Shown here: piece after piece, positions 72 to 19,449 of the stretch
Layout of the letters: each line of letters opens with the position of its first letter
Numbering within the stretch: the first letter of the stretch is position 1
IMG/VR virus record: IMGVR_UViG_3300009551_000045
Coordinates: 1 to 19,449 of that record
DNA: 19,449 nucleotides
Reading direction: 5' to 3' (one strand)
Source of the DNA: a virus
Taxonomy: Duplodnaviria; Heunggongvirae; Uroviricota; Caudoviricetes
Notes under the pieces: model-generated
Told to the model about the DNA's origin: nothing
What the model saw: only the letters and a program-made list of their open reading frames with translations
Databases searched by the model: none
Translations under genes and position numbers: made by a program

Positions 72-75
72 ATAA

Positions 76-1116: not shown

Positions 1117-1134
1117 AACTTAATTATTTGTGTA

Positions 1135-1144
1135 TATAAATATC
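1135..1144 (-). promoter_or_regulatory. GATATTTATA motif, putative late promoter for the chaperone gene
   Basis: Exact copy, 18 nt upstream of ATG 1116 and just downstream of the terminator at 1151-1181. Confidence 0.6.
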
Positions 1145-1150
1145 ATATAA

Positions 1151-1181
1151 TAGAAAAACCTCCGGGTCTAAGCGGAGGTTT
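1151..1181 (-). terminator. Rho-independent terminator ending the sheath-tube-acidic protein transcript
   Basis: Minus strand reads AAACCTCCG-CTTAGACC-CGGAGGTTTTTCTA: 9-bp stem (1181-1173 / 1164-1156), 8-nt loop, U5 tract. Confidence 0.85.
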
Positions 1182-1225
1182 CTGATTCCGAAGGTAGCTC
1201 AGAATTACGAGTTCTGATACAATTT

Positions 1226-1822: not shown

Positions 1823-1834
1823 TAGTTTGTTAAA

Positions 1835-2323: not shown

Positions 2324-2349
2324 TGATATTTAATTAGTTATATTATTAA

Positions 2350-4617: not shown

Positions 4618-4657
4618 TTATAGAAGTTTATTGGTAATTAATTGATCTTTATACAAT

Positions 4658-4677
4658 AATAAATATCAATAAATATC
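4658..4677 (-). promoter_or_regulatory. Tandem GATATTTATT x2 upstream of the sheath gene, putative duplicated late promoter
   Basis: Plus strand aataaatatc at 4658-4667 and 4668-4677, an exact head-to-tail 10-mer duplication; the proximal copy ends 40 nt upstream of ATG 4617. Confidence 0.6.
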
Positions 4678-4697
4678 GAGAAAAATGATTTTTCATA

Positions 4698-4958
4698 TTA
4701 GGTTATTTCACCCGTAGAAAGATCTACTTTAACTGACCCATATTTATTTGATAATGTTGAAGATAAAACTGATTCTTCTTCTAATATCTTATAATAAGTA
4801 GACAAATAGTTTTCTTTTGTAGATTTCAATTCATCAAGTTTCTTCTCTAATTGATCAATTTGTATTACAATTGATCCTATTTCGGGAAGAATTTTATCAT
4901 AACCATCTTTTATTTGAACGATTTTATCTAATTCTTCTTGTGATAACTTGTTACTCAT
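4698..4958 (-). CDS. Small coiled-coil phage protein of unknown function
   Basis: 86 aa with a heptad-like helix (IDQLEKKLDELKSTKENYL) and C-terminal KYGSVKVDLSTGEI; sits immediately upstream of the sheath. Confidence 0.85.
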   Translation of the reverse strand: MSNKLSQEELDKIVQIKDGYDKILPEIGSIVIQIDQLEKKLDELKSTKENYLSTYYKILEEESVLSSTLSNKYGSVKVDLSTGEIT

Positions 4959-4971
4959 AACTATTTATGTA

Positions 4972-5226
4972 TTAAGACTTTATAACGGAATTATTATTTA
5001 CATTATCTATCGGAGCAGTTTTAGATGCTCCATAATAAAAACCTGCTACAGCAGAGAATGCTCCACCGAAAACGAATCCAATAGCAGCATACATTATATC
5101 TTTGTTCTCAGGAGGTACTGGCTTTATTGTTAGCAAATACAAAAGAATAAAAACTCCTAATGTAATTATCACAGCCAAAATATTACGTATTTCTACATTT
5201 ACTATTTTTTTAAAAAATTCAGTCAT
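4972..5226 (-). CDS. Small two-TM membrane protein, holin-like
   Basis: 84 aa with two hydrophobic segments (ILAVIITLGVFILLYLLTI; IMYAAIGFVFGGAFSAVAGFYYG) followed by a FYYGASK motif like that of small phage holin-type proteins. No endolysin is visible in the window. Confidence 0.6.
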   Translation of the reverse strand: MTEFFKKIVNVEIRNILAVIITLGVFILLYLLTIKPVPPENKDIMYAAIGFVFGGAFSAVAGFYYGASKTAPIDNVNNNSVIKS

Positions 5227-5252
5227 AAAAAATAATTTAGTTTGGTTACTAT

Positions 5253-5262
5253 TATAAATATC
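5253..5262 (-). promoter_or_regulatory. GATATTTATA motif upstream of the holin-like gene
   Basis: Exact copy overlapping the TGA of the 886-aa gene, 26 nt upstream of ATG 5226. Confidence 0.55.
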
Positions 5263-7921
5263 AATTACTAATGATATTAATTCTATAACTTCTTGGTATA
5301 ATCAAATAATTTTTAATAATATCAATTGTTTCAGCAAATCCTATATTAGGGTGTACTGCATCTCTCGTATTTCCATAATAATCTAAAGAAGTATAGGTAG
5401 GTCCTGGAATACCTTGTTTATATAACATACCGGTAGTTGTAGGTATGAAAAATGTACTATCTTGTAGACCTATTAATGGAATAGAAGGCACAAATCTTGT
5501 AGCAGCTGTATCCCATACTATTGTACTTCCAGGATTATTTATGAATTTATTACATCCTTGATTTAAGGTTCCAAAATTACAAGCAGTCCAAACTGTATCA
5601 GTAGGTCCTACTAAATAACAATTTTTTACAAAAAGTGAATCATGATCATAGAAATCAAATCCTGGTACATATGGATCATTTCCAATCCCAAGACCTTGAT
5701 GACGTAATGTAATAAACCAAACTTCTGGAACTGTTCGCGCTCTAATATATGGTGATAATGAAGATGTATCTCCTGGATGTGATTGACATTCTAAAAATGG
5801 ATATTTTCTCGAACTATCACTTATACAATTATAAACTCTACTTCTTCCATTATATCCTGTACTCCATAATGAAAATAAATTAAACATAGACGGAATATCA
5901 GCTGCACCCCAATTTCGAACGCAGTTACCAAAATTATTTGTGCCAAACCAACAGTTGTAAACTTCGAAATAAGACATTCTTAAAAATAACATAGCAGCAT
6001 GACCTCTTGGATTAGGAACATTCATACCAAAATTCCAAAGACTATCATGATGTATATATATTCCATATACATTATATGCAAAAATGTATGTTGGTGGATT
6101 TGATAAAGCTGAATAATCTCCAAATTTATCATGATCTATTTCAACATTTATCCATGTCTGATTTTTAGCCAAAGCTCCGATGTAAATAGCTGTATTACCT
6201 GAATTTGCTCCAACTAAAGAATCAAAAGTACAATAACTCCATCTCCATTTATAAAAACAATTTATTGTATCTCCAGTAAAATTTGGAAGAGTTGCGAATG
6301 ATCTAGGACTTGATGGGAAAAATCCATTCATTCCTCTAAATGTGCAATGATCAATCCAAATATGTTGTGAATATCCCAAATTGGCATAAGAAGTAAAAGC
6401 AACATCTATATTATCATTCATAGTCCAATTATATATATGAACCCAAAATGATGAATCTATGCTATTTGCTCCCAATGGTGATGATGTGTTAGGAGTTATA
6501 AATGATCCATTTTGCCAAACTATAGTTATATATTTACCTTCGGATCTAGTACCAATACGATCTATTGTAAAACTTCTATATCCTCCTGATCTAACTGGAA
6601 TAAATACTGTATCTCCTCCCATTAAAGATACTCCAAATGTTGTATTATTAATTAATATATTAGAATTTGTTGAGGGCCAAGTAAAATTCATCGGTGATCT
6701 TGTAGAAGAATTAACAGTAACTTGAACCGTAGCAGTTCCAGTTAATGAAGTATTATCAGTTACAGTTATTTTAAATACATAAGTTCCCTGAATAAGTCCA
6801 GCAACCCCAGTAGTTAATAAATTCGGAGATGTTATACTAGCATTATTTGGTCCACTAACTTGACTCCAAACTATATTTGATGCTGTATTTCCGCATTGAT
6901 ATGTAACACTTGCAGAAATAGATGATGAACTTGTCGGTAAAGTTATTGTTTGATTAGATCCTGGTGTAACAATTGGATTACATGTAGGTCCAACTAGTGT
7001 AGTATCGCCCTGTGCAAGCATCCAAGTAAATATATTTTGACCGGTACGATAGGTTCCCTGCGTATTTGGTGCTGGTCCTGTACCAATATTAGGTCCTATA
7101 ACTGGAATAGTGCTCCAATTTGTTACAGATGGATCATACATAGAATTCCAACAGCAATGTGATCCCCCTCCAAGAGTTTCCCAAGCAAAATAAGCGGATC
7201 CTGGAACTGTATCATTCATAGGTTGTGACCAAAGATAACCATTTCGGAAATTATCCGAGCCATTACCTTCTAAATAAAAATACTTACCACCATATTTAGC
7301 TGCCCATACTTTATAAGCACCTTGTCGTCTATCCCATGAATTAATAGCTGGATTTGGAGTACCTTCGAGAGCTACAAGAGAAGTCATGCGACTCATACCA
7401 TCTTCTGTTCCAGCAGATTTTTCAAAACATACTAAAGCTCCCCAAGTAAATGCTCCTTCCGATAATCCGGCAAAGTGTCTACCTCTCGCTTTAATATGAT
7501 AGAATTTTATTAATGTATCTACTATATTAAGAACATCTGCTGCATATGTATTTACAGAATTAGTATAACACACAGTAATTAATAAAGGATAGTGTCTACC
7601 ATTACCCAATTGTATACCTCCATCCCATCCATTTTTTAACCAAAAATGAGGACCATATACAGTCAATTTACTTGTATCAGTAGTACCTAATTCACCCTGA
7701 CCTGGCATTGTAATAATAGCCGGACGAGATGCTGTATCTGGATGGCCTGCAGTAAAATAATTACGAGGACGAGTAATTCTTATATTCCATATATTAGTAG
7801 GCCCAAATGGCGCATTGAAAATCGAAATAGTGGTATCATAGGTAATCATGTCATGAGTCTCCGACTGACTGAATCCTATGATAGGTAAAAACAGTAAAAG
7901 AAAAAATAATTTCTTAATCAT
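5261..7921 (-). CDS. Exported multidomain protein: signal peptide + alpha/beta-hydrolase (serine esterase-like) + PKD/Ig-like domain + right-handed beta-helix-like domain
   Basis: Signal peptide MIKKLFFLLLFLPIIGFS|Q; oxyanion-like PAIITMPGQGE; nucleophile elbow GLSEG (7468-7454); candidate catalytic His in GGSHCCW; PKD signature GSNQTITLP...WSQVSGPN...GLIQGTYVFKITVTDN...VQVTVN; C-half with IDHCTF/YNCWF/YNCIS beta-helix-like repeats; 16 Cys. Confidence 0.8.
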   Translation of the reverse strand: MIKKLFFLLLFLPIIGFSQSETHDMITYDTTISIFNAPFGPTNIWNIRITRPRNYFTAGHPDTASRPAIITMPGQGELGTTDTSKLTVYGPHFWLKNGWDGGIQLGNGRHYPLLITVCYTNSVNTYAADVLNIVDTLIKFYHIKARGRHFAGLSEGAFTWGALVCFEKSAGTEDGMSRMTSLVALEGTPNPAINSWDRRQGAYKVWAAKYGGKYFYLEGNGSDNFRNGYLWSQPMNDTVPGSAYFAWETLGGGSHCCWNSMYDPSVTNWSTIPVIGPNIGTGPAPNTQGTYRTGQNIFTWMLAQGDTTLVGPTCNPIVTPGSNQTITLPTSSSSISASVTYQCGNTASNIVWSQVSGPNNASITSPNLLTTGVAGLIQGTYVFKITVTDNTSLTGTATVQVTVNSSTRSPMNFTWPSTNSNILINNTTFGVSLMGGDTVFIPVRSGGYRSFTIDRIGTRSEGKYITIVWQNGSFITPNTSSPLGANSIDSSFWVHIYNWTMNDNIDVAFTSYANLGYSQHIWIDHCTFRGMNGFFPSSPRSFATLPNFTGDTINCFYKWRWSYCTFDSLVGANSGNTAIYIGALAKNQTWINVEIDHDKFGDYSALSNPPTYIFAYNVYGIYIHHDSLWNFGMNVPNPRGHAAMLFLRMSYFEVYNCWFGTNNFGNCVRNWGAADIPSMFNLFSLWSTGYNGRSRVYNCISDSSRKYPFLECQSHPGDTSSLSPYIRARTVPEVWFITLRHQGLGIGNDPYVPGFDFYDHDSLFVKNCYLVGPTDTVWTACNFGTLNQGCNKFINNPGSTIVWDTAATRFVPSIPLIGLQDSTFFIPTTTGMLYKQGIPGPTYTSLDYYGNTRDAVHPNIGFAETIDIIKNYLIIPRSYRINIISN

Positions 7922-8352
7922 TTGAAATATTCTATTCTAAATCCTTTAAAAGTATTATTCCATATAATAATCTCATTTGGATGCCATTCAATATCGCCTC
8001 TACTTTTAATATGGAAATAAACGACTCCTTTTTCATATTGTGGATTATGCTTACTGGTTTCCCAATTATCCCAAGATATATAATGAAATTTACTAGTTCT
8101 TGATTTACCTAACCAATTCCAAGTTCTATAAATCATACGAACAGATGTATCCAATTTGAAAGATACACTAATAGTATCTCTTTTGGAAGAAATACTATTC
8201 AATGCCGGTCCTTTATTATCTTTTTTAGAAGATGTATCTAAACGATATAAAGATTGAAATCTATAGTTACTTTCTAATGTCCAGGAATTATTAGGAACTT
8301 GGGCTATACTTTTAAAAGATAAAAAAATTATTAAAATTAATATATATTTCAT
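7918..8352 (-). CDS. Small exported protein of unknown function (basic, Trp/Tyr-rich)
   Basis: 144 aa; signal peptide MKYILILIIFLSFKSIA|Q; its stop overlaps the next start (ATGA at 7921-7918). Confidence 0.8.
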   Translation of the reverse strand: MKYILILIIFLSFKSIAQVPNNSWTLESNYRFQSLYRLDTSSKKDNKGPALNSISSKRDTISVSFKLDTSVRMIYRTWNWLGKSRTSKFHYISWDNWETSKHNPQYEKGVVYFHIKSRGDIEWHPNEIIIWNNTFKGFRIEYFK

Positions 8353-8357
8353 AACTA

Positions 8358-9680
8358 TTAATGTTTTGTAATTTTGATATAAGACAGAAGAGCAACTTGT
8401 TCTCCGCTTGTTAATTTACCAATATAGAATGTAAAGTTACCACCTGCATCTGGTGTTATAGCAGTCCATGTAGCTTTACTACTAGTATTTGCATTTCCAT
8501 TAAAATTCTTAGCGGTTTGCAAAACTGATCCTCTTACATTATAATTGCCTACAGCTGCAAGTGGGAAATGAGTAGTACCTGATAATTCTATATCATATGT
8601 AGTACCATCTGTTTTTAATCCACCAACTACAAATTGAGCATTAGTAGTTTGATATAAATTGCTTGTAAATACAGTTTCTTTCATGACTCCACTATTTGCC
8701 GGATCTGGTATAGTAGCATTAGTTACACCATTATTTACACCTATGCAACCTGCCGGGCTTCCAAACGTTCCCCAATTTGAATTAGAAGTAGATACTGTCG
8801 TAAATGTAATAGTAGTATTTGGTATTGTTCCAGAAATAATATGTTTACTAGGATCTCCTTGAACAATTGTCCAACCTGCTACGTTATTAGCAGCAGTTGT
8901 ATCGAATTGAAATTTAACTGAATCTGGAGTACTTGCCGCTCCTGATGTGGTACCATTTACTGTAACATTTTTAGTTGTTGCACCTCCTCCACTATTTCCA
9001 ATATTTCCTGAATACGTTCCTGGGATAGTATTTGTGTCAGATAGAGCTACATATATCGTTTGAGATATAGACCCTGAGACAGGAACCACTGTTTGTTGGA
9101 ATGCAAATGAACTATTATCTTTAGATACTTTATATCCAGCAGGAGATTGAACAGTTATATTACCCGTCAAGGCAGTACCTGTAAGCGAATATGATTGAGA
9201 ACCTCCCAATGAACCAGTTATGGAAGTAAATCCTGTTAAACTTGTTGGATTAACGATTAAAGTAGGAACAGCTGTTACTGTAGCAGAATAAGCAACATCA
9301 GCTGTAGCGGAGCCGCTAGATCCATGTATATTACCAGAATAAGATCCGGCAGAAGTAGCAGCCGCTACTCTAACATAAACGGTTCCTGAAGGATTGGATC
9401 CAAGAAATGTAATTGTATCAGTCCATGTTGAGTTATCTTTACTAATTTCCATTCCAGAACCAGTTTTCCATCCAACAGCCGCACTTAAATTACCACTAAC
9501 AAAATTAAAGGATTGAGATGCAGATGCTGTTCCTGTACTTGTTAAAAAAGCAGATAATGTATTTAATGAGTGTATATATGGCCCTGGGTTTATCTCTGTT
9601 ATACTAGAGGTAGGTTGAATTATTTGTGCCGAAGCAGAAATAGAAATTATACTAAATAAATATATTAATATTGTTTTCAT
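8358..9680 (-). CDS. Exported protein with two tandem Ig-like domains and a C-terminal beta-sandwich (possible carbohydrate-binding) domain
   Basis: Signal peptide MKTILIYLFSIISISASA|Q. Two similar ~100-aa units (SQSF/Y...ISKDN/VSKDN...VYVR/IYVA...GSYSGNI/GTYSGNI) like those in Bacteroidota surface proteins; the C-domain is beta-rich. Confidence 0.75.
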   Translation of the reverse strand: MKTILIYLFSIISISASAQIIQPTSSITEINPGPYIHSLNTLSAFLTSTGTASASQSFNFVSGNLSAAVGWKTGSGMEISKDNSTWTDTITFLGSNPSGTVYVRVAAATSAGSYSGNIHGSSGSATADVAYSATVTAVPTLIVNPTSLTGFTSITGSLGGSQSYSLTGTALTGNITVQSPAGYKVSKDNSSFAFQQTVVPVSGSISQTIYVALSDTNTIPGTYSGNIGNSGGGATTKNVTVNGTTSGAASTPDSVKFQFDTTAANNVAGWTIVQGDPSKHIISGTIPNTTITFTTVSTSNSNWGTFGSPAGCIGVNNGVTNATIPDPANSGVMKETVFTSNLYQTTNAQFVVGGLKTDGTTYDIELSGTTHFPLAAVGNYNVRGSVLQTAKNFNGNANTSSKATWTAITPDAGGNFTFYIGKLTSGEQVALLSYIKITKH

Positions 9681-9689
9681 ATTATCGAT

Positions 9690-12600
9690 TTAAAGAGAAT
9701 AATCAATGTTAATAACAACAATTGACGAAGTGTTTAAGGTTCCCGAATTAAAATCAAATGTTGCCTGAGTTGCAGAACTAGTAATACTAGCTGTACCAGC
9801 CATATATCCGCCTGCTCCATTTATATTAACATTTTCAACCCCAAAACCAATACCACTTTGCGTTGTAACACTGGTAGCAATTGGAAGACTAAACGTTATT
9901 CTACTGGACGTATTCGTTGCAGAAGTTTGTATTATTACACTTATACGAGCGTGTACAATGTTACCAACTTGTATATAATTTGCACTACTTAACGAAATAC
10001 TAGCTATATTAGTTGTTCCTGTCAAAGTTGGTGTGAAACTACCAGAGGTTCCTCCTCCAGGAGAAACCTGCCATGAAGCATTACCATTAGCATCAGAAGT
10101 AAGAACTTTAAGATTTCCCTGTGTTCCATCAACTATGGATATACCACCACCAAAATAAGATTTACCGGTAGCCACTTTTAATGCCCAAGGACTTGGTATA
10201 GTTACATTAGTTCCAGCAGTAGGAGCCCCAGCAATATACAAAGTAGATGCATTTGTGAATGTTACACCAGTATTAACTGCTGACATTAAAATATTACTTA
10301 AACCAACTAATGCCACATCTGCCCTAGTTCCACCACTACCAGTAAATCCAGCATCACTCACAGCTGGAGATATATTAATTGCAGAACCAAGAGTGCCATT
10401 AAATTGAACTGTTCCATTAGAAATTATTGATGTTGAAGCTAAATTAGCCAACCCGTTATTTAAATTAAGACCTCCAAGTGTTAATGTACTTGTTGTAGCC
10501 AAATCTTGAGGTATTGTTAAAGTTAAATTACCCGTTTGATTAGCTCCAGACGTTCCATTAACAAGAACTTGATTAGCTGTACCTTTAACTGCATAAGTGA
10601 TACCACTCAAACCAGTACCAGCACCATTTGTGGGAAGTAATGTTCCAGACGTGGGTAATGTTACGTTAGTATTACCAGTAAGAGTTAATGTAGCGTTAAA
10701 AGCTCCCGAAGTTGCAAAATTACCACCCAACGTTATTGTCTTGGTAGCATTATTTACACCAGTACCACCGTGATCAGGTGGTACTATACCTGAAAGTCTA
10801 GAAACATCAACAGATGATCCGGACATCATAACGCTATCTATACCACAGGATGGACATATACCAGTACTAGTTATAACCCATTCATAAGTATTTGTGTGTG
10901 AAGGAGCATTATTGTGAATAACTTCACCAGCAAAATATAATCCGGTTGTAGGAGCTGATGCTGCGTAAATATCTTGATTAGATACAGCAACAACTACCCA
11001 CGTATTTAATAGATCACTTCTTTTTAGTATAGCCGACTGTTTATCACGTAAGATAACCATTCTACTAACACCAAATTTATTAACATCAATATTACCACCA
11101 ACACCATTTAACATAACGACACCACTATTACCTGCCTGATCATTAGCACGAATAGATATAAATTCACCTGGCCCGGCATTACTATTGATTGTGCTAATAT
11201 AAGCTGAAGAAGTGGTAGTAGTGTTAACCACAATATCTTTGAAATAGTTTGCTGTAATAGCATTACTGGATACACTTAACGTTTGACCAGCAGATGAACT
11301 GGTAACAGATCCATTTGTTTGAAAACTATTTCCCCAAATATCAAATCCACCAGCAGTACCTGAAGGAGAAGTGTACCATTTATTAACTACACTATATACA
11401 AAATTACCTGCAAATATTCCATGACTCAAATCATCTCCTATAATATAAGCATTCGTACCAACACCTACATTTTTCCAAGTATTCCAAAAAAAGTTTATAG
11501 TACTACGATTAGTCAGATGTACGCCAATGGAATCATTTTCAAACCAACCAGATATTACTGACACACCTTGTGCATTTGATGTCCGCATTATATCATGATA
11601 TGCCTGTACTGTTGGTCGATCAAATACAACAGCACCTTGTATCTGATCATTACTCGTTCCTAAAGAATTTAATTCAACTGCACAAGTATTTAAGTTAGTA
11701 GACCCTGCACCATAAGCTTCTAAATTACGAAAAGTTGTTTGACCTAACTGTCCTGACACATATACCGCTCTTGCAGTTGTATCAGCAGTATTGTATACCC
11801 TAACATCCTCAAAAGTAAGGAATTGGTTAGCTAGATCTCCAGAACCATCAGACGCGATTAAATTAATAGCACGTCCTGAACAGTTCTGAATTTGAACATT
11901 GTTCATTCTAAAATGCCATACGCCGCCATTGAAAGGTGAACTTACAGATCCAACAGCTGTAAAATTAAAACAACCTTGACCTACATATCCAGAATTCATT
12001 ATAACTTGTAAGTCACTAATACCCCACTGATCAACAGGACCCGGAACTATACCAAAAATATACTTCCTAGAACTGTTATTTGGTGCAATCCTAACTCGAA
12101 CATTATCTCCTTGTATAATAACACCTGTTTTGATAGTGATACTATCTACCATGATGTTTTTATTACCACTGATACCTTCATCAATTATCACCTTTCTGGA
12201 TAATGCTCCGGTAGTGGCAGCATAATCAATTACAGACTGTAATTGAGCGGTCATATCGGTAGAACCATCACCTAGAACCTTGAACCATATACTATGAATA
12301 GGTCCTGTAAATTCTCTTTTAAATCGATGGCCAGCCGCATCAACTATACATGTACCTAAATTATCTGTAGTAGTATTATCAGAAGCATCATATACGTATT
12401 TTCCACTAATATATTGGTCTTTTATAAAATAAGCTTTATTTGCAGATGGAGTAGCTACCAAAGCTCTAAGTTCGGAAACATAAATACCTACAACTGTTCT
12501 TCCATATAATCCAACAGTATCCAAGTTAACCTTAAAGTTAATACTATCTCTATTAGTTTCAGTAGTAACATTTAGTAATCCAGCAGCACTTGCACTTATA

Positions 12601-13325
12601 CCTTTGAATAACATAGAGTCCTTGGTAAAATTAAATAGTACCATCTGATTACCATGACCATACCATCCAACATAAATAGTTGAATCAATACGTTTTTTAT
12701 CATTTGCAGTCAACGATCCAGCATTATTATGATCGGCTCCAGTTAATACAATGGAATTACTATTAGATATCTTAATGGTATCGGCTGATGATGATTGTGA
12801 TAAAGATAATGATTGAGTTCCTCCTATTGTAGAAAAAGGAGTTACCCACACTTTCCCGCTATTATCTCTTAACATAAAACTATCAGTAGATAATGGAGAT
12901 GCTTTGTTAGGTAAACCGGTGATACTAAAATCAAATCCAGTCGTACCTAATGTAGTATTTCGTAATAAATTACCACCAAAATAAAGACTATCACCATGAG
13001 ATCCTGTTAATCCATTTACAGGATATACATTGAATGTACCCGATAATAATGTCCATCTATGACCTCCGGTTATAACAGTGTCTCTTTTGTATATATCACC
13101 AGTTGATCTGATTTGAATAAAAGCTCCTAAACTATCTAAACCTCCATTTAAACCATTCGTAGTATCGTTTACTACAGGTATATAAATGTTTAATTGTGCT
13201 CTCAATCTAGCATCGGAAACAGTTACACCAGGTCCACTTCTTAATGCAATAGAAGGAATTTTATTTTGTGCTTTTGCAAAAAAAATTGAAAAAAGCGGAA
13301 TAAGAAATATTAATAATCGTTTCAT
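9690..13325 (-). CDS. Tailspike/depolymerase-like mosaic protein with a pectate-lyase-3-type beta-helix, carrying an N-terminal Sec signal peptide
   Basis: Signal peptide MKRLLIFLIPLFSIFFAKA|Q; spike-head motif VSELRAL...GTCIVDAAGHRFKR; beta-helix cap WFKVLGDGSTDMTAQLQSVID (~12300-12230); post-helix SAPTTGLYFAGEVIHNNAP...EWV; fibre motifs PDHGGTG and KVLTSDANGNASW; C-terminal GSFTPTL...YIQVGNIV fibre-tip-like domain. Confidence 0.75.
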   Translation of the reverse strand: MKRLLIFLIPLFSIFFAKAQNKIPSIALRSGPGVTVSDARLRAQLNIYIPVVNDTTNGLNGGLDSLGAFIQIRSTGDIYKRDTVITGGHRWTLLSGTFNVYPVNGLTGSHGDSLYFGGNLLRNTTLGTTGFDFSITGLPNKASPLSTDSFMLRDNSGKVWVTPFSTIGGTQSLSLSQSSSADTIKISNSNSIVLTGADHNNAGSLTANDKKRIDSTIYVGWYGHGNQMVLFNFTKDSMLFKGISASAAGLLNVTTETNRDSINFKVNLDTVGLYGRTVVGIYVSELRALVATPSANKAYFIKDQYISGKYVYDASDNTTTDNLGTCIVDAAGHRFKREFTGPIHSIWFKVLGDGSTDMTAQLQSVIDYAATTGALSRKVIIDEGISGNKNIMVDSITIKTGVIIQGDNVRVRIAPNNSSRKYIFGIVPGPVDQWGISDLQVIMNSGYVGQGCFNFTAVGSVSSPFNGGVWHFRMNNVQIQNCSGRAINLIASDGSGDLANQFLTFEDVRVYNTADTTARAVYVSGQLGQTTFRNLEAYGAGSTNLNTCAVELNSLGTSNDQIQGAVVFDRPTVQAYHDIMRTSNAQGVSVISGWFENDSIGVHLTNRSTINFFWNTWKNVGVGTNAYIIGDDLSHGIFAGNFVYSVVNKWYTSPSGTAGGFDIWGNSFQTNGSVTSSSAGQTLSVSSNAITANYFKDIVVNTTTTSSAYISTINSNAGPGEFISIRANDQAGNSGVVMLNGVGGNIDVNKFGVSRMVILRDKQSAILKRSDLLNTWVVVAVSNQDIYAASAPTTGLYFAGEVIHNNAPSHTNTYEWVITSTGICPSCGIDSVMMSGSSVDVSRLSGIVPPDHGGTGVNNATKTITLGGNFATSGAFNATLTLTGNTNVTLPTSGTLLPTNGAGTGLSGITYAVKGTANQVLVNGTSGANQTGNLTLTIPQDLATTSTLTLGGLNLNNGLANLASTSIISNGTVQFNGTLGSAINISPAVSDAGFTGSGGTRADVALVGLSNILMSAVNTGVTFTNASTLYIAGAPTAGTNVTIPSPWALKVATGKSYFGGGISIVDGTQGNLKVLTSDANGNASWQVSPGGGTSGSFTPTLTGTTNIASISLSSANYIQVGNIVHARISVIIQTSATNTSSRITFSLPIATSVTTQSGIGFGVENVNINGAGGYMAGTASITSSATQATFDFNSGTLNTSSIVVINIDYSL

Positions 13326-16300
13326 ATATAAAGAATTTGAAAATATGAATCCTGACTGAAGGTTGTATTATTTATATCAATTCTACCTTGAGAAGAGGTA
13401 AAACTGAACCAGGAAGCTAATGATCTTGAAATAGGAGCCATTATAAATCCTTCTTGACTAAACTGTAAAATACTAGAACTAACTAATAAAGAACTACTGA
13501 AAATTGTTGATCCAGAGGAAGGAGTAAATGATTGACCATCACCTATAACAAAATTTATAACTTTAGTAAAATTTCCAGCACTACCAGTATTAACCCATTG
13601 GAATCCTGATTGCGTCTTTATCAATGTTTGATTCAACGATCCTGTAGAACCAATTGAATCATATATCGATTTGCTAATATAAATATCTCCAAATACTTGT
13701 AAAACGGCATTATTGGATCCTGTATTTCTTCCTATTAATATAGAACTACCTGATTGATATATACTACTTGTTGTTAATATATTTGATCCACTAAATACTG
13801 CTAAATAATTAGATAAACCCCGTAATGAAGATGATGGTAAATAATTACTTTCACTTGCAAATACATTATTTATTATGGTATTAAAAGATGAAGAATCAAC
13901 TATATAAGATGCTGTAAATGAATTGAAAGTTCCTGTAATAACATATGATCCGGTAAGAGTTGATAAAGATCCAGAAATGGTCTTGATTCTTGTGTCAAAT
14001 GAACCGGAATCTATGATATAAGAAGATGTAAATGTATTAAATGATTGTGTTAATAAATTAAATGAAGAAGTTAATGTATATTTACTTTCTGAAGCAAATA
14101 TATTAGCAATCTGAATATTCGTGGATGAAGTATATGCCTGGAATATACCATTTGTAACAAATCCATTTGAGCCAGTAGATGATCCTGATAGATCAGACCA
14201 TTTTATTCCTCCTATTATCGAAGAAATTACTTGCCCATTTGATCCAGTATTACCAAATGAATCATATAAATATTGTCCTACATGAAGAGAACTGGTATTT
14301 AGGTAAAGATCTTTATTAAATTCAATTGATTCGGAATAATAAGTAGCTACATCATTTCTACTCATTGAACTAAATCCATTTCCTATTATAAATAATGAAT
14401 TAGCATTTATCTTATTAAACCTACCTATCACTAATTGATATGAACCTGTTGAAATAGTACCAAGACCTTCAGTATGTGATCCAAACCCATAGGATATACT
14501 TCCGGAACCTTCAGCATGAGAATAATCACCATAAGCAGTATTTCCTGTTCCTTCAGAATGTGCTCCTACCCCATTAATAGCATTATTAGAACCCTCAGCA
14601 TGACCTATATATGAATTTACAGTATTGTTAAAACCGTGGGCAAAGGATCCTGATCCATATAAAATATTATTAAATCCAAAAGCTACCGTATTAGTAACAG
14701 ACGGAGTAAAGTTAGTTGGTTGTATAATTGCACCAGATATAGATATAATAGAATTACCTAGTTGATTTATTAGACTCGATGTTAAACTATGAGGAGTATT
14801 AAACAATGCTATTTGTCCTGAACTACCGCTTATGAAATTATTAAATGAAGATGTAAGTAAATAATTACTCTCAGAAGCATATACATTATTTATTTTAACA
14901 TCTGTAGAGGATGAATAAGTAAGAAAACTAGAGCTAAATATATTAAATGATGCGGTTGATAAATAATTAGATTCAGAAGCAAATATGTTATTTATTCTAT
15001 TACTGAATGATGAAGAATCTATATTATAAACAGATTGAGACACAACCTGCATATTAACAATATTACCATTATTGTCAACACCAAGAACGGCACTAGAAGT
15101 ATTGGCATAAAAAGATAATACTATGCTGCCCGTTTTATTAACAACAAAAGCGTTAGATAATGATCCTGTTGAACTTCCATTACCTATTATAAAAATAGGA
15201 TCACCTCCAATCCATGAAGATTGATTAGACGAAGCAATTGGATCATTAAATCTACCCAATACAACGGCATATGCTGCAGATGCTGATAAATTTATACCAC
15301 CTAAAGTAACAGATCCGACTCCTGGAGTGATATTACTTTGACCTCCTACGACTACTGAAGAATTACCAATCGCGCTATTATTAGCACCATCAATAACAAC
15401 CGCCATATTGTTGGCAAAGTTATTAACACCACCCAATACTATAGCATTTGATCCTGTCGTGCTATTATTTGAATTACCAAAAACGATATTATTATTAGTA
15501 AAAAATGCCCCAACTTGAACATTATTTCTTTTAAATATAAGATCCTGAGCATTTGTAGAGCCTAGAAACGATCCAGAAGAAATTGAGTTTCCTGAAAGAT
15601 TCCATCCGCCAGATCCAGTAGAAATCCAAAGTATTCCACCTGGAGCAAAACCTAACATTTGTCCTGCAGATCCAGTTGAATTTGAAGAATCATATATAGA
15701 TCCAGATATATATATAGAACCAAATAATTGTAATAAACTATTATTTATTGATCCTGTTCTTCCTAATATTATAAAACTACCAGATTGATATATGGAACTC
15801 TGTGTTATCGCAGAAGATCCGGTGAATACAGCTAAGTAATTATTATTGCCTATTATAGATGCAGTTTGAAGATAATTGCTTTCGGAAGCAAATACATTTA
15901 TAATTCTAGTTAAAAATGAACTAGAGTCATTTAGGTAAGACGAACTAAAATTTGAAAATGAAGAAGTGAGCAGATAATTCGACTCAGAAGCGTATACATT
16001 GCTTAGACTGTTATTTATCGAAGCTGAGATGTTGAGATAACTAGCAGTAAAAGGATTATAAGATGATGTTGGAACATAATTACTTTCGCTTGCAAATACA
16101 TTTGCGATGTTTATTAATATTGAAGCAGAATCTATAAAATACGATGATGTAAATGTGTTGAAAGAACCAGTTAAAACATATCCAGCAATAAATGACGACG
16201 TAAGAGCAGCTATATCGGTAATATCCAAAGCTCTAAAAATAGGGATTCCAGATGTTCCTACTGGAGAAGCATATACAAGATTTGCACTTTGAGTATTTAA

Positions 16301-17392
16301 AGATGCAGATAAAACTCCTGCACCAACTATTGGTGAATTATAAACACTGAATAATGAAGAAGGTAATGATAATCCAACGGAAGTTACAGAACCACTAGCA
16401 AATATTCCACTTCCACTTCCTAAAGAAATCCATCCAACACCATTATGAAATTCAATATTAGTAGTTTCGGTATTTCCTCTAATCATAGCAAAAGAACCTG
16501 TTGGTCTTTGAGCAGTAGTACCACGAGGTAATAACAAATATGAAGTATCGTTTACAGATACAGGTCCAGCTACCTGCAATAGGGCATTATTAAGACCATT
16601 CACTTGATTGATCAAAAGTGAAGATCCAGAATAATAAAGTAAACCAAAAGTAAATCCTTTTGATCCACTATATATAGGTATATAATTATTACTTCCTAAT
16701 ATAGAACCTGTAGGTAAGTAATTACTTTCAGAAGAATAAACATTATTTATTCTAGTATCTATTGAAGATGAATCATTTTTTATTGAACTGCTTAAAATAT
16801 TAAAAGATGATGTTGGAACATAATTACTTTCTGAAGAATAAACGTTATTAATTTTATTTAAAAAGGAAGAAGAATCTACAAAATAAGAAGCAGTAAAAGG
16901 ATTATAAGATGATGTTGGAACATAATTACTTTCTGATGCATTAATATTTACCAACTTCTGATTAATAGAAGATGAATCTATTACGTAGGATGCACTAAAT
17001 ACACCGAATGTTGTAGTAGTTATATATGATCCAGATGGTATAGATCCAGAAATGGCTTTGATTCTGATATCGAATGAACCAGAATCTACAAAATAAGAAG
17101 CAGTAAAAGGATTATAAGATGATGTTGTAGTATATCCACTTTGAGATGAATATATGTTCTTATCATTATTATAAAATGAACTAGAATCGTTATTATAACT
17201 TGATGAAAAATTATTAAAAGATCCTGTAGTTACATAAGATCCTGTTAATAAAGATGATATTCCATTTTGGAAATAATCTTTCATTGCACGATAACTTGTC
17301 TCTGTTAATGCACCTGTATTTGGATCTCCTATAAATCCTATAGAAGAATCATTTATTGAGCCAGATGGAAGATTTATTATTTTTTTTGACAT
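13322..17392 (-). CDS. Long tail fibre / adhesin-like protein with Ser-rich 34-aa repeats and two YadA-head-like repeat blocks
   Basis: 1356 aa, no signal peptide, no Cys found. Ten (A/S)SES(N/K)Y repeat cores; YadA/Hep_Hag-like blocks NAIVLGG...AVVLGRFN and GHAEG/AHSEG/SHAEG/SHTEG; phage fibre module SVTSVGLSLP...SGIPIFRAL. Confidence 0.8.
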   Translation of the reverse strand: MSKKIINLPSGSINDSSIGFIGDPNTGALTETSYRAMKDYFQNGISSLLTGSYVTTGSFNNFSSSYNNDSSSFYNNDKNIYSSQSGYTTTSSYNPFTASYFVDSGSFDIRIKAISGSIPSGSYITTTTFGVFSASYVIDSSSINQKLVNINASESNYVPTSSYNPFTASYFVDSSSFLNKINNVYSSESNYVPTSSFNILSSSIKNDSSSIDTRINNVYSSESNYLPTGSILGSNNYIPIYSGSKGFTFGLLYYSGSSLLINQVNGLNNALLQVAGPVSVNDTSYLLLPRGTTAQRPTGSFAMIRGNTETTNIEFHNGVGWISLGSGSGIFASGSVTSVGLSLPSSLFSVYNSPIVGAGVLSASLNTQSANLVYASPVGTSGIPIFRALDITDIAALTSSFIAGYVLTGSFNTFTSSYFIDSASILINIANVFASESNYVPTSSYNPFTASYLNISASINNSLSNVYASESNYLLTSSFSNFSSSYLNDSSSFLTRIINVFASESNYLQTASIIGNNNYLAVFTGSSAITQSSIYQSGSFIILGRTGSINNSLLQLFGSIYISGSIYDSSNSTGSAGQMLGFAPGGILWISTGSGGWNLSGNSISSGSFLGSTNAQDLIFKRNNVQVGAFFTNNNIVFGNSNNSTTGSNAIVLGGVNNFANNMAVVIDGANNSAIGNSSVVVGGQSNITPGVGSVTLGGINLSASAAYAVVLGRFNDPIASSNQSSWIGGDPIFIIGNGSSTGSLSNAFVVNKTGSIVLSFYANTSSAVLGVDNNGNIVNMQVVSQSVYNIDSSSFSNRINNIFASESNYLSTASFNIFSSSFLTYSSSTDVKINNVYASESNYLLTSSFNNFISGSSGQIALFNTPHSLTSSLINQLGNSIISISGAIIQPTNFTPSVTNTVAFGFNNILYGSGSFAHGFNNTVNSYIGHAEGSNNAINGVGAHSEGTGNTAYGDYSHAEGSGSISYGFGSHTEGLGTISTGSYQLVIGRFNKINANSLFIIGNGFSSMSRNDVATYYSESIEFNKDLYLNTSSLHVGQYLYDSFGNTGSNGQVISSIIGGIKWSDLSGSSTGSNGFVTNGIFQAYTSSTNIQIANIFASESKYTLTSSFNLLTQSFNTFTSSYIIDSGSFDTRIKTISGSLSTLTGSYVITGTFNSFTASYIVDSSSFNTIINNVFASESNYLPSSSLRGLSNYLAVFSGSNILTTSSIYQSGSSILIGRNTGSNNAVLQVFGDIYISKSIYDSIGSTGSLNQTLIKTQSGFQWVNTGSAGNFTKVINFVIGDGQSFTPSSGSTIFSSSLLVSSSILQFSQEGFIMAPISRSLASWFSFTSSQGRIDINNTTFSQDSYFQILYI
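13830..17130 (-). repeat. Intragenic 102-bp (34-codon) repeat family, including exact DNA duplications
   Basis: taattacttt recurs at 16719, 16821 and 16923 (period 102). Exact 47-bp duplicate at 16871-16917 = 17081-17127; exact 45-bp duplicate at 16043-16087 = 16889-16933. Confidence 0.9.
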
Positions 17393-17393
17393 C

Positions 17394-17552
17394 TTATGTA
17401 ATTATAGTTTTAAAAGTATCAGCTTCTAGCCTATTTCCTGCCTGATTTGGGTGTAGACTATCAAGAAATAATGAATTTGGATCTCCTATTAAACCTAAAG
17501 ATGAATCTAAAATAGATCCTGAGTCTAATTGATTTATTCTTTTATCTGCCAT
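17394..17552 (-). pseudogene. 52-aa chimeric mini-ORF (fibre N-terminal module fused to an SGNH-hydrolase C-terminus); probable internal-deletion remnant
   Basis: Hand translation: MADKRINQLDSGSILDSSLGLIGDPNSLFLDSLHPNQAGNRLEADTFKTIIT*. The first 27 aa match the start of the 1356-aa protein at 18 positions; the remainder carries DxxH(PN)xxG of SGNH block V. An A-rich initiation region lies upstream and TAA-G-ATG couples it to the next gene. Confidence 0.75.
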
Positions 17553-17573
17553 TTTTTTATTTTCAATTTTTTT

Positions 17574-18257
17574 CTATAATGTTAATAGAGATTGTTTTAC
17601 TAATTGAGCTACTATCTCATATCCTTGATCAGAATAATGAACATTATCAGAAGCATAATAAGTTGGATTGTAATTTTGGAATCTGTCGTCTGCTGCTATA
17701 TCACATAGAGCATCAGCATAAGTCATATATCCACTACGCAATAACGTATTTGCTTGCCCCAATTTCGTATTATACTGAGGAATAGTATCTCCAAAAGATG
17801 TGCTTTGGCTTCTAGGAGTTAAAGTAACTGCAACTACTTTAAAACCTGTAGATTTTCTCGCACTACAATAACTAGCATATCGTGAAATAGAACCTGTTAC
17901 ATCTCCATTAATTCCTATATCGTTTCCTATCTCCCATGCTACAACAACTGATCTAACATTGCTATTATATAACGGATCAACTTGTGTTATGGCATCATCT
18001 ATCATCTGTTGTGTAGTTTGTCCACCAACACCCAGATTATAAATAGTACTATTATCATTAACAAATGGATCTAAATTTTTTAAAAAAGTCGGGTAACTAG
18101 AAGTTGGTGGAGAGGAAGACCCAACACCATAAGTCAAAGAATTTCCATCACATACGATAACAGATCCAATATAATTATCAGGAATAGAAACTTGTGAAGA
18201 TATTCCAGTCTTATGTTTACTTATCATTAGATTTATTATAGGAATTATATTATTCAT
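17574..18257 (-). CDS. SGNH/GDSL-family hydrolase (probable carbohydrate O-acetyl esterase)
   Basis: All four SGNH blocks are present: DGNSLT (Ser), NLGVGGQTT (Gly), WEIGND (Asn), SDNVHYSDQG (DxxH). Confidence 0.92.
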   Translation of the reverse strand: MNNIIPIINLMISKHKTGISSQVSIPDNYIGSVIVCDGNSLTYGVGSSSPPTSSYPTFLKNLDPFVNDNSTIYNLGVGGQTTQQMIDDAITQVDPLYNSNVRSVVVAWEIGNDIGINGDVTGSISRYASYCSARKSTGFKVVAVTLTPRSQSTSFGDTIPQYNTKLGQANTLLRSGYMTYADALCDIAADDRFQNYNPTYYASDNVHYSDQGYEIVAQLVKQSLLTL

Positions 18258-19449
18258 TATACTACATTTCTACCTAAAGTTGTTTGAAAATTCTTTGTTG
18301 CATTGCCTAATGCAATAGCTTCCGTATCAGTTAAACCACTACCAACTGAAACAAATGCTAAATTAGAACTTGCTGCAGTGACAGACCCTGAATTATCAAA
18401 TCCTAAAACATATATAGGAAATGGAGGCAATGAACCACTAGTTGTGGATGAAGATGATACGATTAAATTAGAATTATAATATCCTTTCATCGTGTTTGAA
18501 TTTGTACGAGAAATAATTAATGAACCTGTACCATTTGCAGGAGTTGACACTTGACTATTGGATGAATACATCCTTCCTAACATTCCACCTATATTACAAA
18601 GTATAAGTTCATCTGTTCCATTCTGACTACCCATAGCTCTATTAGTTCCTACTACGGTTCTTTCATAATAAGACAAATGAGTGCTATTATATATTAAACT
18701 AGCACTAGGGTTTATATTTGTATTACCAAACGCATTAGATGCATTTCCAGTTATACCATTACTATTATGGGTAACAGATCCTGTCCAGCTAATTCTAAAG
18801 GCTGCATCTAAATCACGAGGATCTTTTAAATTAAATTTATGAGCAAATGCATTACCTCCAATAAAAGGATATACAGCAGTCATCTTAGTCCATATACCAG
18901 CATTTTTAAGATCAAGTACTAATTGATTTATAGCAGTCTTTTGCGTATTATCACCAATATTAGCCGCATTTATAAATGTAAATGCATCTGAATCGAAATT
19001 ACCACTACCAGTTAATACAGTACCAAAATTACTATACGACCAAAAAAATGTAGATCCATCATAATAAAATCCAAGTAGATCAACACTATTTGGATTCTGA
19101 CTTAAAGACGCACTTGTTTGAATACTTCCTGGTAAAGATAGTGCTCTGCTCCCTGTGGAATCCTGCGTGACTTTAATTATACCAAATGAATTAATAGACG
19201 CACTAATTAAATTCAATGAAGCATTTCCAATTAATGTAACATTCGCTACACTTCCAGACAAATAATTCCATACTATTGATGATGAATAAACTAAATTTAC
19301 TGATCCATTTGAGGCATTACTAGCTGAGAGACTATTAAATGATGAAGATATGGAATTCAATGACGCACTCACCGTAGTAAAAGAACTTGAATTAGATACA
19401 TACGATGAACTGAATGCATTGAAAGACGATGTAAGCAAGTAATTACTCT
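18257..19449 (-). CDS. 3' part of a long fibre/receptor-binding gene (truncated by the window edge), ending in a fibre domain and a lectin/ConA-like beta-sandwich
   Basis: The track's start at 19438 is a TTG inside an open frame continuing to the edge as (E)SNYLLTSSF, i.e. the same 34-aa repeat. It contains IKVTQDSTGSRALSLP...DLLGFYYDG and DSDAFTFINAANI...AINQLVLDLKNAGIWTKMTAVYPFIGG, motifs of phage receptor-binding modules. TAATG overlap with the SGNH gene. Confidence 0.75.
   Translation of the reverse strand, partial: SNYLLTSSFNAFSSSYVSNSSSFTTVSASLNSISSSFNSLSASNASNGSVNLVYSSSIVWNYLSGSVANVTLIGNASLNLISASINSFGIIKVTQDSTGSRALSLPGSIQTSASLSQNPNSVDLLGFYYDGSTFFWSYSNFGTVLTGSGNFDSDAFTFINAANIGDNTQKTAINQLVLDLKNAGIWTKMTAVYPFIGGNAFAHKFNLKDPRDLDAAFRISWTGSVTHNSNGITGNASNAFGNTNINPSASLIYNSTHLSYYERTVVGTNRAMGSQNGTDELILCNIGGMLGRMYSSNSQVSTPANGTGSLIISRTNSNTMKGYYNSNLIVSSSSTTSGSLPPFPIYVLGFDNSGSVTAASSNLAFVSVGSGLTDTEAIALGNATKNFQTTLGRNVV

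Follow-up and report, generated by a model that had tools for sequence, protein, structure and literature searches.

A tailspike-like protein with an export leader and a predicted trimeric N-terminal domain in a tail-fibre locus of a Bacteroidota phage

The tail-fibre locus and its leader-bearing genes

The window analysed here is the stretch of 19,449 nucleotides at positions 1 to 19,449 of the tailed phage record IMGVR_UViG_3300009551_000045 (Caudoviricetes), an 83-kb record that is approximately 49% complete and whose host phylum is Bacteroidota. An open reading frame at positions 9690-13325 on the minus strand starts with ATG and encodes a protein of 1211 aa. It is preceded by a fibre gene and accompanied by three further genes with export leaders:

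13322..17392, minus strand: upstream leaderless fibre gene P0002 (1356 aa; phrog_25468), whose stop overlaps the start of the 1211-aa gene
9690..13325, minus strand: gene of the 1211-aa protein
8358..9680, minus strand: second leader-bearing gene (440 aa), leader ending in SASAQ, no family match
7918..8352, minus strand: third leader-bearing gene (144 aa), leader ending in KSIAQ
5261..7921, minus strand: fourth leader-bearing gene (886 aa), with an esterase-like N-terminal part, a PKD domain and a beta-helix-like C-terminal part

In the overlap with the fibre gene (ATGA) the ATG of the open reading frame shares bases with the upstream TGA. The four leader-bearing genes are consecutive and tightly packed, and the encoded proteins are otherwise unrelated. 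The PKD domain of the 886-aa protein is matched at 1.6e-16. P0002 has its N-terminal motif in common with a fibre encoded at 18257-20269; these two ordinary fibres share the motif MSKKIINLPSGS / MADKRINQLDSGS. The 1211-aa protein lacks this motif and its N-terminus shows no similarity to the fibre N-termini of this phage, in agreement with a first-pass annotation of the sequence, which had noted that the ordinary virion-anchoring N-terminus is missing.

Judged by its sequence, the leader of the 1211-aa protein is a textbook Bacteroidota Sec leader. It is tripartite, with a hydrophobic core of 13 residues between MKR and A-K-A, small residues at -3 and -1 and Gln20 as the next residue, as in Sec/SPase I substrates that follow the Bacteroidetes Q-rule (PMC5837995, PMC10653852). 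A twin-arginine motif is absent from the leader. Codons 2-40 contain no in-frame ATG or GTG, so that an obvious leaderless isoform is not encoded; with a TTG at codon 41 as the sole alternative in-frame start around these codons and residue 151 as the next Met, an internal start is unlikely to provide such an isoform. The protein is laid out as follows:

13269..13325, minus strand: Sec/SPase I signal peptide, residues 1-19 (MKR n-region, hydrophobic core, A-K-A; predicted cut before Gln20)
13038..13268, minus strand: conserved N-terminal domain, residues 20-96 (77 aa), a predicted intertwined homotrimer with conserved O-glycosylation sequons at D54, D64 and D82
12486..13037, minus strand: shaft modules, residues 97-280, which match internal stretches of long leader-bearing fibre proteins
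10836..12485, minus strand: tailspike neck and putative pectate-lyase-type beta-helix region, residues 281-830, based on profile matches, PF27114, ESM Atlas features and tblastn
10056..10835, minus strand: fibre repeat modules, residues 831-1090 (HGGTG at 852), with repeats in related proteins
9690..10055, minus strand: C-terminal tip domain, residues 1091-1211 and stop, which matches the C-terminal ends of P0095, P0137 and P0077

Tailspike modules and the conserved N-terminal domain

The first-pass annotation had described a mosaic of phage spike and fibre modules, and its motifs were all found (ELRAL at 285, WFKVLGDGSTD at 347, SAPTTG at 790, GEVI at 800, CPSC at 824-827 and HGGTG at 852); the SAPTTG..GEVI..EW module and CPSC close the region of residues 281-830. 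A profile of residues 270-840 matches the solved tailspikes 5w5p (1.2e-9) and 23sh (7e-7), the K2 tailspikes 8iq5 and 8iqe (approximately 2e-6), the Sf6 tailspike 2vbe and also AlgE beta-helix epimerases. A precomputed Pfam match of the 1211-aa protein to PF27114 (Phage_tail_beta), protein language-model neighbours in the ESM Atlas that carry PF12708 and PF27114, and tblastn matches to phage tail proteins point the same way and support the mosaic as described, here with an export leader that looks genuine. Solved structures are matched just over the neck and the initial turns of the beta-helix, and an AlphaFold2 model of residues 270-840 from a 3-sequence alignment was unusable (pLDDT 34.6); the fold of the entire beta-helix is therefore a putative one. 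The search of a local Pfam copy gave no beta-helix match, PF27114 being the precomputed hit, and word-index searches for relatives of residues 280-800 delivered two weak matches only. The fibre repeats are 41-73% identical to those in P0004, P0006, P0007, P0027, P0086 and P0126, and residues 1004-1068 share 46% identity with the tail fiber protein of Synechococcus phage BUCT-ZZ01. Matches of the shaft modules include residues 647-772 of P0006 as well as P0009, P0011 and P0012.

Residues 1-280 have no match in Pfam, PHROG or NCBIfam, and a particle-binding N-terminal domain of known type is absent as judged by family searches, the phage's own fibre N-termini and solved folds. The leader and the sequon-rich region that had been read in residues 1-270 are both there, but the conserved trimer-forming domain and the shaft modules had been overlooked. 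Residues 1-300 are matched by 154 representative proteins, 123 of which have the 77-aa domain N-terminally, so that leader and domain stand at the extreme N-terminus in at least 123 protein clusters. The C-termini differ across this family and comprise esterases, beta-helices and fibres, with carbohydrate esterases and beta-helices predominating; a constant N-terminal domain joined to changing C-termini is the usual layout of phage attachment domains. The earlier view that a signal peptide had merely taken the place of an anchor is not supported in that form, since the predicted cut site is followed by a predicted trimeric domain kept in more than 120 clusters.

Position +1 is Q in 80/80 aligned family members and likewise in 50/50 of another alignment, position -1 is A, S or G in 79/80, and the median leader length is 19. 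Q20, D64 and D82 are invariant in the alignment of the N-terminal domain; as sequons, D54, D64 and D82 are retained in 53, 75 and 65 of the 80 members, respectively.

The monomer model of the domain has a pLDDT of 79.5. Residues 20-100, which are the part covered by the trimer prediction, are predicted as a homotrimer when given in three copies (score 0.89 vs 0.01 for the best control), a trimer model being one check that the first-pass annotation had proposed; three runs agree on at least 90% of contacts, with a partner pLDDT of at least 86. In the calibration 20/30 solved pairs and 1/23 single chains reach the mark, and it applies only roughly here, as an own alignment and three copies were used. 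The Foldseek comparison that had also been proposed as a check found nothing in the PDB at E <= 0.001 for the model of the domain, and with no solved fold of this kind the trimer score is unlikely to be the recall of a known complex. A shape search of the ESM Atlas reached a TM of 0.52 at most, chiefly with viral tail proteins, and its feature scores are all below 0.9; both serve as leads only. The domain has no match in 50,697 GenBank phage records, and scanning viral and metagenome contigs with patterns of it or of the fibre C-terminal domain delivered nothing confirmed.

Marks of export and the site of action

The O-glycosylation sequon D[ST][AILVMT], as defined in PMC8550257, occurs 13 times in the 1211-aa protein vs 5.0 expected, with nine of the 13 in residues 1-270, and 13 times in the 886-aa protein vs 2.7 expected; in both cases 0/500 shuffles reach 13. 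In 107 family members 1313 sequons stand against 403 expected (3.25-fold), whereas permuted control motifs in the same set give ratios of 0.74-0.98. The leaderless fibres and the baseplate proteins of this phage show no enrichment, and in the fetched loci the ratio of observed to expected sequons is 3.1 for leader-bearing proteins and 1.3 for others. Leader anatomy, family-wide invariance, sequon enrichment and the position of the locus come directly from sequence and comparison. The canonical leader, the invariance of the Q-rule residue, four leader genes in a row and the enrichment of sequons make it well supported that the protein passes out of the cytoplasm by export, and the tailspike-like protein probably matures outside the cytoplasm. 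A C-terminal sorting domain of the type IX secretion system (T9SS) is absent by Pfam and NCBIfam from the protein, its three neighbours and five relatives, and by Pfam from 50 further family members; type IX secretion cargo is thereby ruled out.

It is very improbable that the leader goes unused, with a hydrophobic N-terminus buried or held by a chaperone in an ordinary cytoplasmic tail spike. That reading agrees with the textbook assembly route and with a locus position that is that of a tail fibre, but the 80 members, with their invariant +1 Gln and their small residues at -1 and -3, bear the traits of SPase I cleavage and not those of a buried helix, the unrelated neighbour proteins bear the same type of leader, and a 3-fold enrichment of a motif read solely in the periplasm would be left unexplained.

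From these marks we infer export, cleavage, glycosylation and enzyme activity, and, with the greatest reserve, docking. We tentatively propose a tailspike-like trimer, expressed late, that takes the host export pathway before use and is then loaded on the virion at lysis, a course that we rate as somewhat short of probable. The 1211-aa protein would be translated together with the tail fibres, carried over the inner membrane by Sec and cleaved by signal peptidase I before Gln20, and the new N-terminal Gln would cyclise to pyroglutamate, as in other exported Bacteroidota proteins. The general O-glycosylation system of the host would put glycans on D-S/T-hydrophobic motifs, three of them within the N-terminal domain, and residues 20-96 would wind three chains together and initiate the trimer. 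The beta-helix would bind, and probably cleave or modify, a host surface polysaccharide, with the fibre modules and the tip adding binding. Once holin and endolysin have merged cytoplasm and periplasm, the N-terminal cap would dock the matured spike on the tail, perhaps on the C-terminal domain of P0002, the fibre from the preceding gene, and the resulting virion would carry a host-processed, protease-resistant accessory receptor-binding enzyme.

All genomic contexts read for family genes are phage tail-fibre loci. At 40-60% identity, the N-terminal domain is present in at least four unrelated backbones: those of a 368-kb jumbo phage and a T4-like myovirus, and two more. The family gene follows the tail-tip genes in HK97-like siphovirus contigs and another backbone, and in these a small leaderless gene with a shared C-terminal domain lies directly upstream and overlaps the family gene; in several backbones the family gene takes the usual place of the receptor-binding protein gene. 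The gene directly upstream of the family gene in the sister phage L001 encodes a protein of 247 aa, made up of the fibre anchor motif and a C-terminal domain that shares 59% identity with the one of P0002. A PHROG search gave no names to the tail genes of locus L006. The position after the tail tip, the small upstream gene and the 247-aa protein favour a virion destination.

Other observations count against it. Tailed phages assemble in the cytoplasm, and we know of no mechanism for joining a periplasmic part to a tailed-phage particle. Since two ordinary leaderless fibres are present, the 1211-aa protein is not needed as receptor-binding protein. The spread of the domain over at least four unrelated backbones is easier to reconcile with a role on the host side, or a self-contained one, than with a socket on a single type of baseplate. 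The idea that the C-terminal domains of this phage's fibres are homologous to the gene conserved upstream in backbones B and D was rejected (hhalign probability 0.3%), and that gene family, the candidate adaptor, has no homologue in this record, whose completeness of approximately 49% means that the missing homologue does not show absence from the genome. A free end protected by pyroglutamate and as many as nine glycans would be an equally good reading of the cap.

On balance we lean slightly towards virion loading at lysis over an enzyme that acts free or on the envelope, a possibility that as a whole we rate only a little lower. Its first form, unlikely by itself, is an exported, cleaved and glycosylated trimer that never joins the virion, builds up late in the periplasm and comes free when the cell lyses, as a soluble, stable depolymerase or adhesin; by removing capsule, exopolysaccharide or biofilm matrix in the neighbourhood of the burst it would help the progeny to spread, with the N-terminal domain as folding nucleus and protected free end only. 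The entire export evidence applies here too, a known virion-binding domain and any likeness to the phage's fibre N-termini are absent, and the C-termini of the family are largely carbohydrate esterases and beta-helices. Relatives of the 886-aa protein adjoin family genes in two other phage backbones; the combination of a family gene with a PKD or esterase protein, both with leaders, is found in three unrelated backbones, a recurrence expected of a self-contained module. Depolymerase activity free around plaques is known (PMC6116005), and WceF of Pantoea, which acts on exopolysaccharide, is tailspike-like, trimeric and exported and has no particle-binding domain (PMC7949094). A plain folding nucleus is, however, not expected to show 40-60% identity and invariant surface-type residues across disparate phages; release at lysis needs no prior export, and without a T9SS domain the outer membrane is not crossable before lysis. 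The locus position and the adjacent adaptor-like genes also suit a virion part, and analogues in Cellulophaga phage phi10:1 are recorded in virions.

The second form, distinctly improbable, is a factor that destroys or masks the receptor on the producing cell: acting from the envelope or the periplasm, the spike and its three neighbours would trim or deacetylate surface polysaccharide during its export, so that infected cells and debris cease to adsorb phage, with superinfection exclusion and protection of the progeny as the result. Small leader-bearing genes reportedly lie beside receptor-binding genes in T5 (Llp) and phi80/N15 (Cor), and the cassette can be likened to these exclusion-type genes. 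The export evidence applies again, the cassette contains an esterase-PKD-beta-helix protein inside a fibre operon, a typical site of exclusion genes, and for the Q-rule leader genes in prophages of Porphyromonas gingivalis a modification of the host envelope has been suggested (PMC10367356). Late expression with the structural genes, which is judged from operon position only, would leave such a factor only a short time to act before lysis; a masking role sits badly with proteins of such large size and fibre-like character, the spike tip is not common to the phage's fibres and gives no sign of targeting of the same receptor, and the conserved trimeric N-terminal cap is left unexplained. The tip has no paralogue within the 83-kb record, and the idea that it is a decoy of the tip of the phage's own fibres was rejected on this ground. 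A soluble or receptor-masking enzyme, the first choice of the first-pass annotation, is thus no better supported than the alternative it had named, a spike matured outside the cytoplasm, which the MS/MS record of phi10:1 and the receptor-binding-gene position keep from being the weaker one.

Comparison with known systems and implications

The solved tailspike depolymerases (5w5p, 23sh, 8iq5/8iqe, 2vbe) are homologous to the protein in the neck and the start of the beta-helix (E 1.2e-9 to 2e-6), and like them it is a predicted trimer from a tail-fibre operon and a mosaic with fibre modules. Known tailspikes are leaderless, their first part being a cytoplasmic particle-binding domain, whereas the 1211-aa protein has a predicted cleavable Sec leader, an unrelated conserved cap and an enrichment of periplasmic glycosylation motifs.

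In phi10:1 (NC_021802) the genes gp091-gp095 form a run at the tail end, all with Q-rule leaders, and include two annotated pectate lyases and a tail fibre. According to the notes of the GenBank record gp091-gp094 are structural by MS/MS, and leader-bearing structural proteins favour a virion destination; their detection by MS can also be explained by co-purification. The phi10:1 proteins have no detectable sequence similarity to this cassette, and gp091-gp095 show neither the family N-terminal domain nor sequon enrichment. The record is silent on the leaders.

WceF of Pantoea stewartii is likewise an exported trimeric exopolysaccharide enzyme of tailspike fold without capsid or tail adaptor, but it is a bacterial protein encoded in an exopolysaccharide biosynthesis cluster, with a Tat leader and without fibre modules or N-terminal cap (PMC7949094); the gene described here lies in a phage tail-fibre operon instead. 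The mosaic adhesive trimer (MAT) fibres of Bdellovibrio bacteriovorus are phage-fibre-like mosaic trimers that exit the cytoplasm and have varied glycan-recognition tips, but they are encoded by the bacterium outside a phage tail operon, sit on the predator surface and have an unrelated N-terminus (PMC10769870). P. gingivalis prophages, which are read as using the general secretion system of the host, also have genes with Bacteroidetes Q-rule leaders; these are five genes of unknown function that are not described as tailspike- or fibre-like, with neither N-terminal domain nor sequon enrichment reported (PMC10367356). Sec-exported and SAR endolysins show that tailed phages pass late proteins through Sec before lysis, but these are small lysis enzymes acting on peptidoglycan, neither fibre nor spike (PMC6116005).

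The family is now defined by sequence as a Q-rule leader, a predicted trimeric cap and enzyme or fibre parts that vary, in more than 120 clusters and at least four unrelated backbones, and it carries strong sequence marks of export and O-glycosylation. In textbook tailed phages each virion part is built in the cytoplasm, and to our knowledge tailed-phage proteins do not receive host periplasmic modifications. As a tentative generalization, many Bacteroidota tailed phages might bring their outermost tail parts through the periplasm, cleaved, capped with pyroglutamate and O-glycosylated by enzymes of the host and trimerised by the cap, and attach them to particles built in the cytoplasm only between holin action and rupture of the outer membrane; we know of neither two-compartment assembly nor host-glycosylated virion proteins for Caudoviricetes. 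If the proteins are on virions, phage assembly in one of the major bacterial phyla would have a second compartment, with host range possibly dependent on the secretion and glycosylation genes of the host. If it is free, about a tenth of this 83-kb record would be devoted to secreted glycan-active enzymes, which would bear on the polysaccharide ecology of biofilm, soil and gut. The N-terminal domain is a marker for locating such genes, a leader is no ground for excluding candidate receptor-binding proteins in Bacteroidota phages, and recombinant production of these depolymerases may require periplasmic expression.

The phage record and its leader-bearing cassette

The virus record (83,449 bp, 32% G+C, about 49% complete according to CheckV), whose first 19.4 kb make up the window, belongs by its gene sequences to a contractile-tailed phage with the following tail-region features.

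Tail genes and fibres of the record
1835-2323, tail tube
2350-4617, tail sheath
9690-13325, minus strand (from 13325 down to 9690), spike gene, encoding 1211 aa
13322-17392, minus strand, leaderless long fibre gene P0002, N-terminal motif in common with the other fibre
17574-18257, SGNH esterase
18257-20269, minus strand, leaderless long fibre gene, N-terminal motif in common with P0002

The N-terminal motif of about 30 aa in both leaderless fibres (MSKKIINLPSGS.. and MADKRINQLDSGS..) is found in the sister phage L001 as well and presumably binds the baseplate. A protein of 84 aa with two hydrophobic stretches (4972-5226, minus strand) lies between the leader-bearing cassette and the sheath gene and could be a holin-like membrane protein; its sole match is phrog_9990, of unknown function.

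The start codon of the spike gene and the stop codon of the fibre gene upstream (ATG and TGA) overlap in the sequence ATGA. Residues 1-19 of the spike consist of MKR, 13 hydrophobic residues and A-K-A, followed by Gln20. Downstream lie three genes (440, 144 and 886 aa; cassette spacing 9-nt gap, 5-nt gap and 4-nt overlap) that start with the same kind of leader, ending in AQ or SQ, and whose products show no relation to the spike beyond it. No leader-type N-terminus was found among the remaining tail proteins of the record. On this anatomy the signal peptide reported in the first-pass annotation is upheld and the leader is considered real. Neither ATG nor GTG occurs in frame in codons 2-40, and the first Met after the start is residue 151, so that a leaderless isoform is not obviously encoded. 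No paralogue of the spike was found in its own genome (the 83-kb record). A leader-like stretch ending ..RSISQ was also noticed outside the window, in a 142-aa ORF adjoining the terminase-side genes (G000:C1:37280-37708, numbered on the whole record); it begins some 13 residues after the called start, and the true start of the ORF may lie further downstream.

The N-domain family and its O-glycosylation motif

Directly after the leader follows a conserved domain, the N-domain (residues 20-96); proteins with leader and N-domain are referred to here as the family. An exhaustive HMMER search with spike residues 1-300 (E <= 0.001) matched 154 representative proteins; 123 of these, about 100 to 1900 aa in length, carry the match to residues 1-100 at their extreme N-terminus. 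All of 80 aligned members have Gln20, Asp64 and Asp82, and R29, D38, P50, G67, R81, T83, G87, G88, H89 and W91 are nearly invariant. The leader has a median length of 19 residues, with A, S or G at position -1 in 79 of the 80 members and mostly small residues at -3. Small residues at -1 and -3 together with Gln at +1 characterize signal peptidase I substrates under the Bacteroidetes Q-rule (PMC5837995, PMC10653852), a pattern that the family leaders match; the spike itself has the sequence features of Q-rule Sec substrates. The variable parts of 50 members contain, according to Pfam, GDSL/SGNH esterases, SASA esterases, DUF5907 repeats, fn3 and a pectate-lyase domain, and in none of the 50 was a T9SS sorting domain found. 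The spike likewise has no such domain and was rejected as T9SS cargo.

All ten family members traced to their origin came from metagenome sources, and tblastn delivered no match to the N-domain in 50,697 GenBank phage records. Eight distinct contexts of family genes were examined and all eight are phage-like. In the sister phage L001 the gene is flanked by two fibre genes, followed by three further leader-bearing genes. A 368-kb jumbo-phage contig holds two family genes adjoining leaderless fibres, one with SASA, the other with GDSL and pectate lyase. On the HK97-like siphovirus contigs L002, L009 and L010 the order is tape-measure and tail-tip genes, family gene, lysis genes, and the placement is the same in a fourth backbone (L005, L006, L011). 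Genes following the family gene in these loci also carry leaders, and relatives of the 886-aa protein of the window, with PKD or esterase parts, recur in three backbones. The esterase-like part of that leader-bearing protein (5261-7921, minus strand) has short leaderless relatives beside lysis genes in another backbone:

Short leaderless relatives of the esterase-like part
L005:20099-21100
L006:20025-20879
L011:17204-18019

Bacteroidota glycosylate extracytoplasmic proteins at the sequon D-(S/T)-(A/I/L/V/M/T) (PMC8550257), and the spike has the sequence features of such O-glycosylation substrates. It contains 13 sequons against 5.0 expected from shuffles (13 reached in none of 500), and its 886-aa neighbour 13 against 2.7, whereas each leaderless fibre and large baseplate-region protein of this phage has two, with 2.6-6.9 expected. 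The 107 family members that are 300 aa or longer hold 1313 sequons against 403 expected (3.25-fold; 2.83 after removal of the first 110 residues), and in 93 of them no more than 5 of 200 shuffles reached the observed count; for four control motifs, permuted or substituted, the ratios were 0.74-0.98. Over all fetched loci the ratio is 3.1 for leader-bearing proteins versus 1.3 for the others. The three most conserved Asp residues of the N-domain each start a sequon, retained in 53, 75 and 65 of 80 members. The enrichment is read as a mark of export independent of the leader, and export of the spike is well supported and highly probable. The early region, beyond the window, encodes a membrane-type protein of 153 aa (G000:C1:74704-75165) with four sequons against 0.44 expected, a count reached in none of 500 shuffles.

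Predicted architecture of the spike

In a monomer model of the N-domain (pLDDT 79.5) the leader forms a helix, residues from about 14 to 50 are extended and residues 69-93 fold into a small sheet of three strands. Three copies of residues 20-100 were then predicted together from an 80-row alignment in three runs, with three controls. Each run scored 0.89, versus 0.01 for the best control; the runs have at least 90% of contacts in common, with a partner pLDDT of at least 86. In calibration of the tool, 20 out of 30 solved pairs and 1 out of 23 single chains attained this mark, counts that are only roughly valid here because the alignment was our own and three copies were modelled. In the prediction the N-domain is a homotrimer whose chains meet along residues 22-51, each shifted by a constant register offset relative to the next; this suggests that the chains intertwine into a stem and that the globular part packs around it. 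Of the trimer model and fold search proposed earlier, the former succeeded for residues 20-100, but the structure search found no solved structure similar to the N-domain model, and recall of a known complex by the predictor is therefore unlikely. Shape neighbours in the ESM Atlas are mostly viral tail proteins (TM <= 0.52), which serves as a lead only.

Residues 97-280 match internal stretches of other long leader-bearing fibre proteins. A small profile of residues 281-830 matches the solved tailspikes 5w5p (1.2e-9) and 23sh, 8iq5 and 8iqe (about 1e-6), as well as AlgE epimerases and, weakly, the Sf6 tailspike; the matches to solved tailspikes are confined to the neck and first helix turns. 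The precomputed annotation of the spike is PF27114, and its language-model neighbours carry PF12708 and PF27114. For residues 281-830 we infer a full beta-helix with a possible catalytic site. Residues 831-1211 consist of fibre repeats and a tip in common with other family members.

Destination of the spike and comparison with known systems

Whether the exported spike ends up on the particle is less clear; loading onto the virion is quite possible, and we lean slightly towards it over a free or envelope-acting enzyme. The layout of constant N-terminal and variable C-terminal parts is that of an attachment module, and in several backbones the family gene occupies the position of a receptor-binding protein. 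However, this phage already has ordinary fibres, and the N-domain is common to unrelated tail architectures. In two unrelated backbones, the HK97-like contigs and the fourth backbone, the family gene is immediately preceded by a small gene without a leader, and the two genes often overlap:

Leaderless small genes upstream of family genes
L002:7304-7681
L009:9549-9941
L010:6759-7133
L005:9241-9996
L006:9234-10004
L011:5025-5792

Their products have different N-terminal halves in the two backbones and share a domain of about 75 aa at the C-terminus; they are candidate adaptors or chaperones for the exported spike. In L001 the product of the gene directly upstream (L001:2691-3434, 247 aa) looks like a minimal adaptor: it contains little beyond the anchor motif of the fibres and a C-terminal domain that matches the end of P0002 at 59% identity. 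Against this, the adaptor-like family of the other two backbones was not found in the present, incomplete record and is without relation to the fibre ends of this phage. In Cellulophaga phage phi10:1 each of the proteins gp091-gp095 begins with a Q-rule leader, and the GenBank record lists gp091-gp094 as structural from MS/MS, but that phage is an analogue only, with no sequence similarity to the cassette and no sequon enrichment.

A further point against loading is that we know of no mechanism that would attach parts from the periplasm to particles built in the cytoplasm. If it happens, such attachment could plausibly take place after holin and endolysin have acted and before the outer membrane is disrupted.

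A literature search found no description of tailed-phage tailspikes or fibres that carry a leader. The closest functional analogues of the spike are WceF, a bacterial enzyme of tailspike fold exported by Tat (PMC7949094), the MAT fibres of Bdellovibrio (PMC10769870), the unexplained Q-rule genes found in P. gingivalis prophages (PMC10367356) and endolysins exported through Sec (PMC6116005). Tailspike depolymerases are defined in part by a known particle-binding N-terminus, which the spike lacks. The first-pass view of a tailspike-like depolymerase without a virion-anchoring N-terminus accordingly holds for the tailspike homology and the missing known anchor, but needs amending in that a conserved domain, predicted to be trimeric, follows the signal peptide. 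The spike may work like a tailspike depolymerase.
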